Assembly: GCA_964538765.1 (NCBI GenBank)
Contig: CAZIHS010000004.1
Location: 1-45,634 of the forward strand
Source of the DNA: an uncultured Gammaproteobacteria bacterium
GTDB taxonomy: Bacteria > Patescibacteriota > Microgenomatia > UBA12405
Direction of reading: 5' to 3'
Length of the DNA stretch: 45,634 nt
Shown: positions 2,703 to 45,634 of the stretch, piece after piece
Layout of the letters: the number at the start of each line of letters is the position of its first letter
How positions within the stretch are numbered: the stretch's first letter is position 1
Position numbers and translations under genes: made by a program
The notes under the pieces: model-generated
Told to the model about the DNA's origin: nothing
The model's input: the letters and a program-made list of their open reading frames with translations, nothing else
The model's database searches: none

Positions 2703-3848
2703 CTATTTACAGGCACTAGCACAGTCAGAGCTCGTCACCGGAATACACCTTGCCCCGGTATACCGACCGTCCAATCCCCAACAGGACTTACACCGATACC
2801 CGGTCTGACAGCTAACAAACCCATCAACATCACACCTTGAACAGGCCGTAGTCCATGGCGGCCTTGTCGGCCTCACCGTCACCGACGGCATTGGTGTTGT
2901 CGAACCAGAAAAACAACTTCCTCCGCTAGCAAACGCCTGCTCACAAGTCTGCCCCAAAGGTACGCATTTAGCCCCGGCGTACGTCGAACCCGACCAGCAA
3001 CTTTTACACCAGTAACCGCTTACGCATCCCGAAGATCCAGGAACATCGCATCTCTCACAGGCCAATGCCCTCACCCCCGATGCTGTTGGAGTTAATGTTG
3101 GCAAAACAACTCCAGTTGCGGTTGGATATGTTGCCGTTGGCGTTGATGTTGGTACTGCCGCTGTTGGCGTTGCCGTCGGCACCACCACAGTTGGTGTTGC
3201 TGTCGGAACACCTCCATAAGTTGGAGTCGGTGTCGGGGGCACCGAAGAAGGCGCCGGCGTTGAAGTTGGCGCTGGTCCACCACCCGACACCAAATACACA
3301 ATCCCCGCCGAAGCCAGTTGAATTGACGGATCAGCTCCAGTAGTCGACGCCACCCCCATGCTGTCAGTAGTGTTCAACGACACCATCGCGCTTCCACCAT
3401 TAATCGCCTTAAACTTAACTTTTCCTAAATTAACCACCCCTGTCGGCAAATCTGTTTCAGGTAAACTGTTTGGAACCGCACCCGACAACATCAGCTTCCC
3501 CTCGGCATTAATAAATGTATTTGCGAATATGTCCCCGCTGCTCCTAAAAATAAAGCTGGAGCTATTCCCATAATCAGGAGTAACTTCCAAAACCTGAACC
3601 TTGTCTTTATCAAAGTTTACCCTAACGTCAATTGCCACTAGTTTTTTATCTCCCACATCAACTTTTAAATCCATTAAAACTTCCTGGTTTACAGTCAAGT
3701 TTGTGACCGAAGAATTCATTATTACCGTTCCTGTTGAAAAGAATGCGCCCCTTCTGGTTTCTTGGTTTTTCCTCACCAGCACCAATCCTGCCGCCAGCGC
3801 CCCAAACAGCACCAAAACAAAAAGAACCCTTCCCATCTTCTTTAACAT
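2703..3848 (-). CDS. Membrane-anchored cohesin-domain protein with Pro/Thr linker and two Cys-rich C-terminal modules
   Basis: N-terminal TM + QETRRGA; cohesin-like beta-sandwich (AIDVRVNFDKDKVQVLEV, LGKVKFKA); PTATPT linker; duplicated CxxCDVxGxxxCxxGYxCKSCW module. Confidence 0.75.
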   Translation of the reverse strand: MLKKMGRVLFVLVLFGALAAGLVLVRKNQETRRGAFFSTGTVIMNSSVTNLTVNQEVLMDLKVDVGDKKLVAIDVRVNFDKDKVQVLEVTPDYGNSSSFIFRSSGDIFANTFINAEGKLMLSGAVPNSLPETDLPTGVVNLGKVKFKAINGGSAMVSLNTTDSMGVASTTGADPSIQLASAGIVYLVSGGGPAPTSTPAPSSVPPTPTPTYGGVPTATPTVVVPTATPTAAVPTSTPTATYPTATGVVLPTLTPTASGVRALACERCDVPGSSGCVSGYWCKSCWSGSTYAGAKCVPLGQTCEQAFASGGSCFSGSTTPMPSVTVRPTRPPWTTACSRCDVDGFVSCQTGYRCKSCWGLDGRYTGARCIPVTSSDCASACK

Positions 3849-7447: not shown

Positions 7448-8668
7448 CTAATACAACTGATCTTGTTTTTCCTGAAGCGCTACCATTAAATTAGCAACAT
7501 CAAGACTGTTAACCAAGCAGTTGCCATCCAAATCAGCCTTCAAATCACCTCCCACCTCAGCCTGTTCCCTCAACAAAGCTTTCGCCTTCACATAAGCAAA
7601 ATCCACCCCATCCACCACTCCATCCTGTTCACCCGAATCTCTTCCAACAACATCTCCAGGCACCAAAGGATACCCACTAAAATCAACTGTTTGGTCAGCC
7701 AAAATTGTTATTTGCCCTCCTGGCCGATTATAAAAAGCAGTTTGTCCATCAACCGCATACTTAGTTTGGGCATGTTTTGGCCCCTTAATCAAAATTGCCA
7801 ACCCCTCTCTCTCTGAAATACCATCCAAATTCACCACCCCCAAATACTTCCTCAATCCACCCCCGTTTTCCACCAAAGCTAATCCAACATTCTCATAACT
7901 TCTCATTTGAGTTGGGCCAACAACCGTCACTTTCACCGGCCAGTTAACGGCACAACTTGAATCAGGCCCAACATCCTCAAAAGCCATCTTAAATTTCAAT
8001 AAATTAGCCGCCCCACCCGGCCCTGCCGTCGGGGTTGGAGTTGGCGAAGGCGTCAAAGTTGCTGTTGGTGTAGGTGTCGCCGTCGCTGTCACTTCAGGCG
8101 TAGGAGTATCCGTCGCTGCCGCTCCACTCCCAACCTGATAAACACCCCAACCCAGAGTTCCCCATTCCAACGTCTCCGGAGTCCCTTGACTGCTTATACC
8201 CCTCAACATATAAACGTAAGACCCATCAACCCCCAGCCTTGCCTCTCCCTGAGCCAGCGCCTCCAGTTCAATTCTAAATAAACTCGCCACCCCAGTCACC
8301 CCTCTAGTATCCCCTTCCCCTAAAGTCGCCTCCAGCACAATTTTCCCGGTCGCCTGATCAACTCTTTTCTGGATCACATCTCCAACTAACGGTTCTTTTG
8401 TCACTGAGTTAACTTTTAATCTGCTGTTATCAAAAACCAGCCCTATCTCCATCGCGCTCAAATACCGTTCTCTGACGTCCACTTTCACCACCACCGTCCA
8501 TGTCTCGCCCACTGCCACCGTCTTAGTATCCGGTAGAACCAGAAAATCAACCAGACCGTTAGCCGCCCCTCTTCTCGTTTCTTGTCTTCGGGAAACCAAC
8601 ACCAAGCTGGCCACCAGTGCCACCCCAACCAATCCCCACCACAACCACTTCAACTTATCTCTCAACAT
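7448..8668 (-). CDS. Membrane-anchored cohesin + dockerin protein
   Basis: N-terminal TM + QETRRGA; cohesin-like segment (SAMEIGLVFDNSRLKV, LFRIELEAL); TPT linker; C-terminal dockerin GDV...QDGVVDGVDF / ADLDGNCLVNSLDV. Confidence 0.8.
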   Translation of the reverse strand: MLRDKLKWLWWGLVGVALVASLVLVSRRQETRRGAANGLVDFLVLPDTKTVAVGETWTVVVKVDVRERYLSAMEIGLVFDNSRLKVNSVTKEPLVGDVIQKRVDQATGKIVLEATLGEGDTRGVTGVASLFRIELEALAQGEARLGVDGSYVYMLRGISSQGTPETLEWGTLGWGVYQVGSGAAATDTPTPEVTATATPTPTATLTPSPTPTPTAGPGGAANLLKFKMAFEDVGPDSSCAVNWPVKVTVVGPTQMRSYENVGLALVENGGGLRKYLGVVNLDGISEREGLAILIKGPKHAQTKYAVDGQTAFYNRPGGQITILADQTVDFSGYPLVPGDVVGRDSGEQDGVVDGVDFAYVKAKALLREQAEVGGDLKADLDGNCLVNSLDVANLMVALQEKQDQLY

Positions 8669-8677
8669 TAATTAAAT

Positions 8678-9607
8678 TTAGCACACTTTTTCTTTTTGCA
8701 ATAGCATCGAAACCACCTCTCGCGCCACATTAATTCCCGTCGCTTGCTCAAACCCCCTAAACTGGCACTGGCGATTAACTTCCAAGACATAGTTATTGCC
8801 TCTTTCGTCTTTCATAATATCCACCCCTGCATAATCAAGTCCACCGGCTTCTGCCACCGTTTCAGCCAGCCCTTTTTCCACATCGCTAAGTTCCCACCCC
8901 TCCACCTTTCCCCCTAAACTAAAATTACTTCTAAACTCTTTTCCCACTGCCGTTCTCTTCATTGCTCCAACTGCCCTTCCTCCAATCACTATCACCCTCA
9001 AATCCCAACCAAGCGGCAAATATCTTTGCCACAAAAACATCCCCAAATTTTTTTCATTTATTTTCTCCAGCCACCCCAGGGCTTCTTTTAAGTTAGACAG
9101 CTTTCGCACACTCTTTCCCTGATACCCCCTCTCATGTTTCACCACTAAAGGAAATTCCCACTTCTTGTCCAATCCGACCTGCCCAATTAAAAAGTTCCTC
9201 ACCACTTCCTTTTGGTAAAAAATTCTAGTCGGAACAACTTCTATTCCAGCCCCCTCAAACACCCCATGCTGACTAATTTTTCCCATCCTCGGCCAACCCA
9301 GATAACTTTTTCCATTAATGCACACCACCTCGTCCCTCAACAGTCTAATCAAAAGGTTTCTCCCTTCAACATACTTTCCGCTTTTGGTTCCTGCCACCCT
9401 AAACCAGCAACCCAAAGTATTGTCACCATTTATTTCCTCCCCGGCCACCAGCACCCTGCATCTACCACCACCAATTTCAAACTCAATCTCTCGGTACAGT
9501 GCCTTTTTTACCCCAACCCCCAGCCTCTCGGCCTCCTCAACCAATCTGTTAACCTCAAACTGGCTTTGCAAAAGCGACATTGTAAAAGTAATTATTCGTT
9601 TTTTCAT
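8678..9607 (-). CDS. RimK-family ATP-grasp ligase
   Basis: DLRVIVIGG, FRSNFSLGG, AGVDIM, VLEVN motifs. Confidence 0.88.
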   Translation of the reverse strand: MKKRIITFTMSLLQSQFEVNRLVEEAERLGVGVKKALYREIEFEIGGGRCRVLVAGEEINGDNTLGCWFRVAGTKSGKYVEGRNLLIRLLRDEVVCINGKSYLGWPRMGKISQHGVFEGAGIEVVPTRIFYQKEVVRNFLIGQVGLDKKWEFPLVVKHERGYQGKSVRKLSNLKEALGWLEKINEKNLGMFLWQRYLPLGWDLRVIVIGGRAVGAMKRTAVGKEFRSNFSLGGKVEGWELSDVEKGLAETVAEAGGLDYAGVDIMKDERGNNYVLEVNRQCQFRGFEQATGINVAREVVSMLLQKEKVC

Positions 9608-43546: not shown

Positions 43547-44488
43547 ATGTCCCATCTTTTGGTCATTGACGCCCACGCCATTCTCCACCGGGCCTACCAC
43601 TCCATTCCGCCCCTAACCCACCACGGTCAGCCGGTTAATGCGCTCTTTGGTTTTTATTCAATGTTGCTTTCCTCCCTTGACCTACTAAACCCCAGTCACC
43701 TTGTCGTTTGTGTCGACTCGCCCGGCCCCACCTTTCGCTCCACTGAATTTATCGGCTACCGCGCCAAACGTCGCCCACCCGAATCAGATCTTCTCCGCCA
43801 GCTTCCTCTTTTGCCTGCCACCCTTCAAACCTCGGCTATTCCTTTTTTTGCCATCGGCGGCTATGAAGCCGACGATCTTATTGCCACCATCACTGCCAAA
43901 TCAAAATCCCGGGTCACCAAATCAAAAAAACACTTTTTTAAAAAAATCACCATAATTACCGGCGATAAAGACCTGATGCAGCTGGTTGACGATCGGGTAA
44001 ACCTCTATGTTCCGGTTCGGGGTCTTTCCGAAACCAAAATATATGGCATTGGCGAAGTTAAAGAAAAGTTGGGGGTTCTCCCGTCCCAGGTTGTCGATCT
44101 CAAAGCCCTCATGGGCGACAGCTCTGATAATTATCCTGGAGTCGCCGGCATTGGTCCAAAAAACGCCGTAGATTTACTTTTAAAATACCAATCTTTGGAT
44201 GGCATCTATTCCCACCTTGACAGTCTCCCTCTTCCTCTTCGTGCCAGGCTTGAATCTGCCAAAAAAGACGCCTATCTTTCCCAAAAACTCGCCACTCTTA
44301 TTTTCAATATCCCTCTGGCTTTCAGGCCAAAAATGGCCCGCTGGACACCTACCCAGGTGGCCGGCCTTGCCAAAGTCTTTGGTGAGTATGGTTTTAAGTC
44401 TCTCCTTTCTCGTCTTCAAAAAAAACATTCACCCAAATTAACCCCTCAAAATCCACTTTCCAATCCCAACCAAACCTCTTTGTTCTAA
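43547..44488 (+). CDS. Stand-alone 5'-3' exonuclease (PolA N-terminal/FEN domain)
   Basis: IDAHAILHRAYH, YRAKR, YEADDLIATI, TGDKDLMQL, ALMGDSSDNYPGVAGIGPK; ends without a polymerase domain. Confidence 0.93.
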   Translation: MSHLLVIDAHAILHRAYHSIPPLTHHGQPVNALFGFYSMLLSSLDLLNPSHLVVCVDSPGPTFRSTEFIGYRAKRRPPESDLLRQLPLLPATLQTSAIPFFAIGGYEADDLIATITAKSKSRVTKSKKHFFKKITIITGDKDLMQLVDDRVNLYVPVRGLSETKIYGIGEVKEKLGVLPSQVVDLKALMGDSSDNYPGVAGIGPKNAVDLLLKYQSLDGIYSHLDSLPLPLRARLESAKKDAYLSQKLATLIFNIPLAFRPKMARWTPTQVAGLAKVFGEYGFKSLLSRLQKKHSPKLTPQNPLSNPNQTSLF

Positions 44489-44622
44489 GTGCCCGAAAAT
44501 ACTCTCTCTCTCTTAAAGACATTGGTCCATTTTTCAATTAAACGATCCGGAACTTCCCCATAATAAGTTTCTGCTTCGCCCACCGCTAAAGCACCAAAAG
44601 TCTCCGACCTGGTGAAAGTATC
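44485..44622 (-). pseudogene. Possible 3' remnant of a host gene truncated by foreign DNA
   Basis: Open 45 codons DTFTRSETFGALAVGEAETYYGEVPDRLIEKWTNVFKRERVFSGT*; its TAG overlaps the exonuclease TAA (CTAA); a stop lies immediately upstream where composition changes. Confidence 0.35.
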
Positions 44623-44810
44623 TTATTAACCCGTCACACTGCATGACTGGGAACTTCCGCCCGAACTGCCCAGGATGCGGGAGGTGGTTGATTGGCCCGC
44701 ATCAGACCGCCTGGCGATCCTCTGGCTGGTGCAGCGTTATCGGGAGATGAAAGAAACGACGGCGTTATAGGGCGTAAGGAGACAAGGCGCACCTTCTGGA
44801 TGAGTATTCC

Positions 44811-44976
44811 GCTTGCCTATGCTTTCTTATTTTGCCACACGGTCAAGGACGCTTCGGCAGCCTCTCATACCCGCTCTCGCGCTTTTGGGGCCGGCTGCCT
44901 GCGCGCGAGTCCTCCCCCGCCGCGGCGGGGGAGTCTTCTTGACTACGTGTGCTGGCATGAAGTTAAGCAGGCAAGC
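44811..44976. other. Structured non-coding element (RNA or ssDNA fold), family unknown
   Basis: Nested stems 44811-18/44969-76, 44821-24/44965-68, 44836-41/44946-51, 44842-47/44938-43; 22-nt perfect palindrome 44912-33; interleaved 7-bp helices 44856-62/44893-99 and 44876-82/44903-09. Confidence 0.6.
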
Positions 44977-45052
44977 ATTATTCAATGCCTGACCGGTACC
45001 CCTAAACTGGAGTGATTATTCTATTTGAATTATCCTTTTAAGGAGGTACTAA

Positions 45053-45304
45053 ATGAGCGCTATCAACAATGAAGTCAAACAGGAAATTTTAGGAAAAGTT
45101 AAATCAGGTGAGGAGGTTAAAAAAGTAGCTGCCCAGTATGGTGTGTCTGACCGAACTATCTATGCTTGGTTAAAGAAAGGAGTGACCAACAACATTTCAG
45201 TTTTGGAATTAGGAAAACTCCGGAAAGAAAACCAAATCCTTAAAGAGATTGTTGGCATCCTGACAGTAGAAGTTGAGAAACTAAAAAAAAAGACCAGGAA
45301 GTAA
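45053..45304 (+). CDS. IS3 transposase OrfA
   Basis: VAAQYGVSDRTIYAWLKK HTH and ELGKLRKENQILKEIV leucine zipper; SD AAGGAGGT at 45040-45047. Confidence 0.88.
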   Translation: MSAINNEVKQEILGKVKSGEEVKKVAAQYGVSDRTIYAWLKKGVTNNISVLELGKLRKENQILKEIVGILTVEVEKLKKKTRK

Positions 45305-45587
45305 AAGTACTTTTTATCGGGAATTAACCAAGTTTGTCAAAGAAGAATTAGCCACTAGAGCTATCCAACTTAAAGATAATTTGGTGGCTAAGTTTCTGGG
45401 AATCTCCCAGTCGGTTTTCTTTTACCAGCCCAAATTGACCCATGAAAACGAGAACCTTAGGGAGCAAATTCTCTCTGTTCTGTCAGCCAACCCCGCCTAT
45501 GGTCACCGAAGAATCGCCATTGCTTTAAGTGCAGGAAAGAAAAGGGTCAGGAGGGTGATGAAACTTTATGGGATTAAACCGCAATAA
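45285..45587 (+). pseudogene. IS3 transposase OrfB N-terminal part, truncated
   Basis: Frame open from 45285 (KKRPGSKSTFYR...) to TAA 45585-45587; lacks the DDE domain. Confidence 0.75.
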
Positions 45588-45634
45588 CTCAATACCTTGG
45601 AAACGATAGTCTGTGTTTGGCAAAAACATGAGAG

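Follow-up and report, generated by a model that had tools for sequence, protein, structure and literature searches.

A large imperfect inverted repeat in a foreign mobile-element scrap, tentatively assigned to a transfer-origin region

The fold at 44811-44976 of the window (the whole stretch of DNA analysed, 45,634 nt) is a large imperfect inverted repeat, here called the rod, which encloses two hairpins and lies within a truncated fragment of a mobile element whose horizontal acquisition is well supported. We tentatively read the rod as a DNA-level large inverted repeat from the transfer-origin (oriT-like) region of the donor element, enclosing a terminator hairpin. The fold would then be the orphaned intergenic control region of a foreign Anaerolineae (Chloroflexota)-type conjugative or mobilizable element and would be no gene of the host. 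In the present genome it is most likely a functionless relic, since no Replic_Relax gene is present, the small gene ahead of the fold is truncated and the downstream side has been replaced by nested IS elements. What seemed to be a novel RNA fold becomes, on this account, an ordinary but informative relic of horizontally acquired mobile-element DNA. The features are listed here in order of position, with those that have no assigned strand given as unstranded.

44485-44622, minus strand: 45-codon scrap, headless and tail-less, with weak likeness to the N-terminal region of a glycosyltransferase-like protein of relatives (tblastn E 0.05-0.14)
44623-44989, unstranded: foreign GC-rich block, 367 bp, 57-71% GC, single copy
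44630-44770, plus strand: C-terminal half of the small gene, 46 codons and a stop, with the N-terminal CxxC...CxxC half missing (profile E 7.8e-20)
44771-44810, plus strand: spacer from the stop codon to the rod, conserved in part with the homologous locus L211 (GGCGTAA..., ACC.TC.GGAT, TCC)
44811-44976, unstranded: the whole fold, with the rod enclosing two hairpins
44811-44849, unstranded: 5' arm of the rod, with GCTTGCCT and GCCACACGGTCAAGGA conserved in L211 and GTCAAGG found also in the rod of loci L207 and L208
44856-44899, unstranded: hairpin A, comprising helix A (GGCAGCC/GGCTGCC), a 5-bp extension and a 3-bp tip
44876-44909, unstranded: span of the proposed helix B (CTCGCGC at 44876-44882, GCGCGAG at 44903-44909), interleaved with helix A
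44912-44933, plus strand: perfect 22-nt palindrome CTCCCCCGCCGCGGCGGGGGAG, a 9-bp stem with a 4-nt loop, followed by TCTTCTT; terminator-like
44936-44976, unstranded: 3' arm of the rod, containing TTGACT (44939-44944) where relatives have the -35 box of the downstream promoter
44990-45580, plus strand: IS3-like element with left end TGACCGG..., OrfA (HTH domain) and the start of OrfB (HTH_21); truncated at 45580
45581-45634, plus strand: left end of a second element, which interrupts the IS3-like element and whose relatives carry an rve-integrase gene; reaches the contig end

A foreign GC-rich block at the contig end

The window is one whole contig of a host genome of 818 kb, a MAG in 48 contigs with 44% GC. 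The 5'-3' exonuclease gene ends at 44488, and in relatives the next gene on the same strand is glycosyltransferase-like; the inverted scrap at 44485-44622, weakly resembling such a gene, suggests an IS-mediated rearrangement or deletion at this place. There is a step in GC content at about 44623, and every alignment of the IS3-like copies in related genomes begins exactly at the base at 44990, so the fold sits in the 367-bp GC-rich block and outside the IS, which was inserted 13 nt past the rod. The block is bounded on one side by a truncation junction and on the other by the exact left end of the IS3-like element. Relatives of the second element encode HTH_32 and rve integrase-core proteins (L185, which is G072:C25 1433-2402, and L186), giving a nested IS at the end of the contig.

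When the 104 genomes of the same family and the 132 of the same order were searched, no counterpart of the block was found save chance matches to the bare palindrome, and plasmid and phage collections gave neither a DNA nor a protein match. A continuation of the block on another contig was considered and set aside: the host's remaining GC-rich patches consist mostly of coding DNA, and no link to the block is obvious for any of them. Two of the host's other contigs drew attention in their own right. One (G000 contig C42, 3694 bp) reaches 69% GC, and its first ~180 bases recur at ~3538-3694, making a circular molecule, a tandem repeat or a contaminant possible. The other (C14) has at 1-100 an extreme G+C low-complexity run (CCGCGCGCCCCCCCCGCCCC...GGGGCGCGGCGCGCGG) that may be an assembly-end artefact or a repeat.

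The coding remnant in the block belongs to a family of small zinc-ribbon proteins. Its plus-strand frame (44630-44767) lacks a start codon and closes with a TAG stop, and a search of 1.84 billion representative proteins returned 13 matches at E <=1e-3, of 50-104 aa (best E 9.6e-8, 62% identity), all of which align at their C-termini. Full members have an N-terminal CxxC...CxxC zinc ribbon followed by YRYLEP..L..WELPPELP.MRE.VD.PA.ERLAILWLV..Y, and the remnant retains this sequence only from 'P.TL..WELPP' on. Neither Pfam nor NCBIfam holds a model for the family. A predicted structure (AlphaFold, pLDDT 74, moderate) had no match in the PDB, and in the ESM Atlas the protein matched unnamed viral clusters only, at scores below 0.9.

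A profile of the family, run over 401 genomes of the window's phylum, found the window alone (0 of the 400 others). The family is rare, being found in 0 of 401 genomes of an evenly drawn phylum sample, and it appeared in 2 of 401 genomes of the class to which an Anaerolinea MAG belongs. In one of these two, the small gene has a 307-aa neighbour that, compared by eye and unaligned, is of the type seen in locus L205, and then a Walker-A open reading frame read as the start of a T4CP. One family member is labelled 'Chloroflexi bacterium', the family includes NLS76653.1, and further relatives were seen across loci L202-L217, L220 and L221. It is the neighbours of this family, a coupling protein and a Replic_Relax relaxase, that identify the block as the scrap of a foreign conjugative or mobilizable element. 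The mobile-element origin proposed from the letters of the sequence is therefore borne out, with the fold inside a foreign block and the family of the coding remnant found in T4CP/MOBC-relaxase transfer modules.

Shape, stability and conservation of the fold

That the fold itself is real is well supported. Measured against dinucleotide shuffles of the same composition, the 166-nt fold had an MFE of -82.2 kcal/mol as plus-strand RNA (z -4.52) and -79.2 kcal/mol as minus-strand RNA (z -4.81), with 0 of 200 shuffles as good in either case, and as ssDNA it had a fold energy of -43.4 kcal/mol (z -4.65) that again none of 200 shuffles equalled. The rod was retained when a 411-nt stretch was folded, and the flanking 190 nt of the GC-rich block showed no significant extra structure. 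Only 4 of the 59 pairs in the plus-strand MFE structure and 1 of the 55 in the minus-strand one are G-U, and with so few on either strand the fold is nearly strand-symmetric. The proposal that it could form on either strand or as ssDNA agrees with this near symmetry and with the nearly equal stability of the two strands.

In the MFE structure, 44811-44849 pairs with 44936-44976 through six stems of 8, 4, 3, 5, 3 and 9 bp. The sequence-only reading was right that nested stems close the structure, but had counted four of them. The junction closed by the rod holds hairpin A and the 22-nt palindrome. On re-reading the sequence, the palindrome, helix A (44856-44862 with 44893-44899) and helix B were all found where they had been placed, with spacers of 13, 10 and 3 nt. 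Among shuffles, two interleaved perfect 7-bp helices appeared in 1.3% for the 84-nt core and in 6.3% for the full 166 nt, an unusual arrangement as judged by a frequency calculated post hoc, and a perfect hairpin stem of at least 9 bp appeared in about 1%. A nested conformer in which helix B replaces helix A lies 5.4 kcal/mol above the MFE.

The palindrome is best read as a stock intrinsic-terminator hairpin of the small gene, and as no special part of a novel RNA. A terminator scan flagged it with 9 pairs (8 of them GC), a loop of 4 nt and the tail TCTTCTTGAC, with 5 T in the next 8 nt, and a stop codon lies 141 nt upstream on the same strand. Outside the small-gene context, the exact 20-24-nt sequence is present in at least 5 of 401 Anaerolineae-class genomes, with near-copies in others; these copies, inspected by eye, look intergenic at the ends of genes, and their stems are often extended. 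In the relative G022, a run of T8 comes after the core palindrome, making a clear terminator. The genomes of this class that carry exact CTCCCCCGCCGCGGCGGGGGAG (at L222, L224, L227 and other loci) are unrelated to one another, and the sequence seems to be a stock terminator-like hairpin that they share or have reached by convergence.

The comparison of non-coding sequence rests on one homologue, L211, the only sharer found (nhmmer E 2.7e-45 with a two-sequence model); its 5-kb contig shows no visible Dtr gene. The two sequences, which are 82% identical over 55 nt by blastn, were compared by semi-global pairwise alignment, the 3' arms not being alignable by MAFFT. Their non-coding core is conserved above the adjacent coding DNA. 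L211 keeps the outer stem, in which GCTTGCCT pairs with AGGCAGGC (8 of 8 pairs, one a wobble), the TGCCA/TGGC stem, the 5' core GCCACACNGTCAAGGACGCTYCGGCNGCC and the GGCTGCYTGCGCGC stretch. Of the rod pairs, 20 of 33 are kept, mostly outer ones, and the inner 5' arm has no partner. The base of hairpin A is conserved in sequence save for a single mismatch, where an A-to-C change midway along helix A goes uncompensated; helix A also has one wobble, and helix B keeps 4 of its 7 pairs. In the place of the palindrome stands a GC hairpin of unrelated sequence (GGGGTG...CACCCC). Folding of the wider 211 nt of L211 gave four hairpins enclosed by a closing stem (RNA z -2.3), and the 133-nt core gave no significant fold (DNA z -0.09).

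Transfer modules in relatives and the candidate transfer origin

The small gene has a recurrent setting in relatives. Sixteen metagenome loci that encode zinc-ribbon relatives (49-63% GC) were collected, and the order of the module runs from a VirD4-like coupling protein through a Replic_Relax/MOBC relaxase to the small gene, a strong hairpin, a promoter and SprT-like genes. A VirD4/TraG-like coupling protein is encoded in L205, and L206 and L210 encode 490-aa proteins homologous to it; directly upstream of the small gene, L206 and L210 encode a Replic_Relax (PF13814) protein; and SprT-like (L206, L207, L210), PD-(D/E)XK, PIN and AAA_22 proteins are encoded downstream. CONJscan scores PF13814 as the MOBC relaxase class, and in streptococcal IMEs the domain accompanies VirD4-type coupling proteins (PMC5357655). 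TraX of pAD1 typifies the MOBC relaxases, which are enzymes of the PD-(D/E)XK type (PMC5714925, PMC6736028).

In most locus types, a strong hairpin follows the small gene, with its 3' arm overlapping the -35 box for the SprT-like, nuclease or PIN genes. In L206, L209 and L210 this is a perfect hairpin of 17-19 bp (z -5.6 and -6.9) whose 3' arm holds the -35 box of a TGnTATAAT promoter, and compensatory G-C to A-T changes separate the hairpin of L206 from those of L209 and L210. L207 and L208 have a 135-nt rod (DNA z -10) that carries GTCAAGGG/CCCTTGAC, with apical arms GCGTCAAGGG/CCCTTGACGC, and in L207 two pairs of direct repeats of 10-17 nt come right after it. After the small gene of L205 and L213 there is only the promoter, the hairpin being absent, and the -35 box of L213 is CCCTTGACG. 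In the window, a search of 44740-44992, where the downstream flank ends at the IS at 44990, found no short direct repeats, and a promoter scan found no acceptable -10 box behind the TTGACT of the 3' arm. The window has no gene for a relaxase or a coupling protein, and a genome-wide search of the host for Replic_Relax (PF13814) found none.

A role in an oriT region is favoured by the position of the repeat between Dtr genes (T4CP, MOBC relaxase and a small accessory-like protein) and leading-region-like genes, by its strand symmetry together with the second rod of similar size in L207 and L208, and by the conservation in sequence, without covariation, of the outer arms and the GTCAAGG/CTTGAC motif. 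The function itself we infer from synteny and from one literature precedent. In such a role, relaxosome or regulatory proteins might bind the outer arms GCTTGCCT / AGGCAAGC and the GTCAAGG/CTTGAC motif, a nick or recognition site could be presented through extrusion or through folding of ssDNA, as may be compared with the ~140-bp repeat of the MOBC-type oriT2 of pAD1, and the inner 22-nt palindrome would double as the intrinsic terminator of the small gene.

The precedent is the oriT2 of pAD1/pAM373 in Enterococcus faecalis (with TraX and the TraG-like TraW), which Francia and Clewell reportedly described in 2002 as an inverted repeat of ~140 bp, nicked inside by the MOBC relaxase TraX and lying beside short direct repeats. 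The likeness lies in a large repeat, which measures ~140 bp in oriT2, 166 nt in the window and 135 nt in L207, in its intergenic place within a module that encodes both a VirD4/TraG-like coupling protein and a MOBC relaxase of PD-(D/E)XK type, here seen in the relatives, and in short direct repeats beside it, here seen in L207. Unlike oriT2, the window has no such direct repeats on its surviving flank and no relaxase or coupling-protein gene, its repeat is GC-rich and not AT-rich, and the order here is T4CP, relaxase, small gene and repeat. At 166 nt, the rod exceeds the length of an intergenic inverted repeat (>100 bp) taken to mark a MOBC oriT. The oriT sites of pAD1 and pAM373 contain inverted repeats (PMC5587640).

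Several observations count against an oriT. The hairpin measures merely ~19 bp in the loci where the relaxase gene adjoins (L206 and L210), it is missing from L205 and L213, the 3' arm of the inner rod is missing from L211, and a hairpin that follows a stop codon and overlaps the next promoter also resembles a plain terminator. Among the identities offered by the sequence-only reading, an oriT-like or ssDNA-level signal is still the best fit, given a near-symmetric repeat with sequence-conserved outer arms, although the marks of a single-strand origin (CS-6, a usable -10 box) were not found.

At the start of the L210 locus, three tRNA genes of a nearby tRNA cluster offer a possible integration site. 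A few kb from the module, on the same 182-kb contig, a Moco riboswitch (8622-8768) lies upstream of a molybdopterin oxidoreductase gene.

Alternative readings and wider meaning

The main alternative is that the structure is a plain 3'-UTR terminator or insulator, one that stops transcription of the small gene and screens or occludes the -35 box of the promoter that follows; the length of the rod would then be an accident of the lineage. We consider this possible though rather unlikely. It is in keeping with a rod that begins 40 nt past the stop codon, with a palindrome and T-rich tail flagged as terminator-like and used as a stock hairpin elsewhere, and with the simple hairpins of L206 and L209 just ahead of a TATAAT promoter. 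Rods of 135-166 nt with z-scores of -4.6 to -10 are, however, needless for a terminator, the outer arms and 5' core of L211 are conserved in sequence even where their pairing partners are lost, and the non-coding core is conserved above the neighbouring coding DNA. Set beside known intrinsic terminators (including GC-rich ones with a weak U-tract from high-GC bacteria), the palindrome shares the stem-loop and T-rich tail after a stop codon, but differs in being nested in a 166-nt rod with a second hairpin. The two readings, oriT repeat and terminator, are compatible and do not exclude one another.

More doubtful is an ssDNA-active signal of the transferred strand (an Frpo/ssi promoter or an sso origin) that would bring in RNA polymerase or primase once inside the recipient; we judge this improbable. 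Like Frpo/ssi promoters and ssoA origins, the fold is a long imperfect hairpin, nearly all Watson-Crick, in a transfer-associated intergenic place, with a -35-like box (TTGACT) where the 3' arm is paired throughout, and its place in relatives is ahead of leading-region-like genes (SprT-like, nuclease). It differs from them in having no -10 box and neither CS-6 nor an RSB-type motif. In the search for a -35/-10 pair at a spacing of ~17 nt within the stem, TTGACT and TTGACC were present, and neither arm had an acceptable -10 box at 15-19 nt; the best match was 3/6, that on the plus arm lacking both A2 and T6. The promoter scan was negative, and the CS-6 of ssoA (TAGCGT/A) was absent from both strands of 44771-44989.

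The idea of a novel structured ncRNA of a mobile element, with a pseudoknot or conformational switch, fared poorly and is now very improbable. The significance of the fold, the rarity of its interleaved helices among shuffles of the core and the different-sequence hairpin in the place of the palindrome in L211 all speak for it. Against it, L211 leaves the mismatch in helix A uncompensated, keeps 4 of the 7 pairs of helix B and has lost the inner rod with its 3' arm, and the absence of compensatory changes in homologues, seen here in the single one available (n = 1), is what the sequence-only reading had itself named as evidence to the contrary. The conformer with helix B is costly in energy, no promoter was found ahead of the fold, and the strand symmetry indicates DNA rather than RNA. 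As had been anticipated, the fold matched no Rfam family, even at E <=10; at the gathering threshold, the Rfam 15 covariance models returned only a tRNA elsewhere in the window, and the best hit in the nearest region was an L31 leader (13.8 bits, E 5.6), outside the fold.

That the fold arose by chance in GC-rich junk, or is an artefact of assembly, is hardly credible: GC-rich DNA does fold readily and the locus is the rearranged, IS-ridden end of a MAG contig, but the z-scores are relative to dinucleotide shuffles of the same composition, L211 is an independent metagenome homologue, and the block adjoins host DNA at one end and, at the other, an IS end typical of the family.

Other identities were also weighed and rejected. 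The fold resembles 6S RNA and SRP RNA in its rod shape and in a length of ~170 nt, but lacks a central bubble and domain IV motifs and lies in foreign DNA. The Rfam models for SRP and 6S RNA detected nothing over the host genome, and a housekeeping RNA missed by Rfam was discarded because the fold is absent from 132 of 132 order relatives and lies in foreign DNA, RNase P and tmRNA being found elsewhere. A MITE or repeated palindromic element does not fit a sequence that matches only itself in the genome, nor can the fold be part of the IS3-like element, all family copies of which start at 44990, past the fold. A retron ncRNA whose reverse transcriptase had been cut off by the IS was dismissed, there being no RVT_1 in the genome and the architecture being wrong, as was a DGR target or template, there being no TR/VR-type repeats in the window. 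For a TnpB/IscB omega RNA or an IS110 bridge or seek RNA, the upstream frame is that of a small zinc-ribbon protein and not a transposase tail; for an integron attC, which would have paired R''/R' boxes (RYYYAAC ... GTTRRRY) at its two ends and an integrase or cassette array close by, there is a single GTTAAGC box without a partner in the 5' arm, and no array of such sites was seen in the window. A loose structural pattern, too loose to discriminate, gave only chance matches over the genome and viral contigs, and R/Y-coded and core patterns found nothing in viral contigs.

Returning to the oriT-region reading, the rod and small gene may mark where transfer starts in an undescribed family of Anaerolineae elements, integrative or mobilizable and of MOBC type, with the scrap recording that DNA was taken up directly from a host or neighbour belonging to the Chloroflexota, although we hold this broader proposal to be unlikely. 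If it were true, the scrap might be used as a marker that links an uncultured episymbiont to its host. The analysis exposes a rare unannotated zinc-ribbon family tied to Chloroflexota MOBC-relaxase modules with strong hairpins or large inverted repeats. Little is known of the oriT sites of this relaxase class, and the repeats are candidates for its transfer origins. A cross-phylum scrap in a reduced genome also bears on DNA acquisition, and possibly on the identity of the host. Neither the family nor the scrap is a major surprise.

The scrap lies in a 0.8-Mb genome of candidate-phyla-radiation type, a few hundred bases from the host's own VirB4/PrgI secretion cluster. When the donor-type neighbour proteins were compared with the host genome, they matched only its own T4CP-like genes, at 32-34% identity. 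The host carries two VirD4/TraG-like coupling-protein genes (G000 C12:313-2475 and C15:6770-9100), which show this level of identity to the coupling protein of L205.
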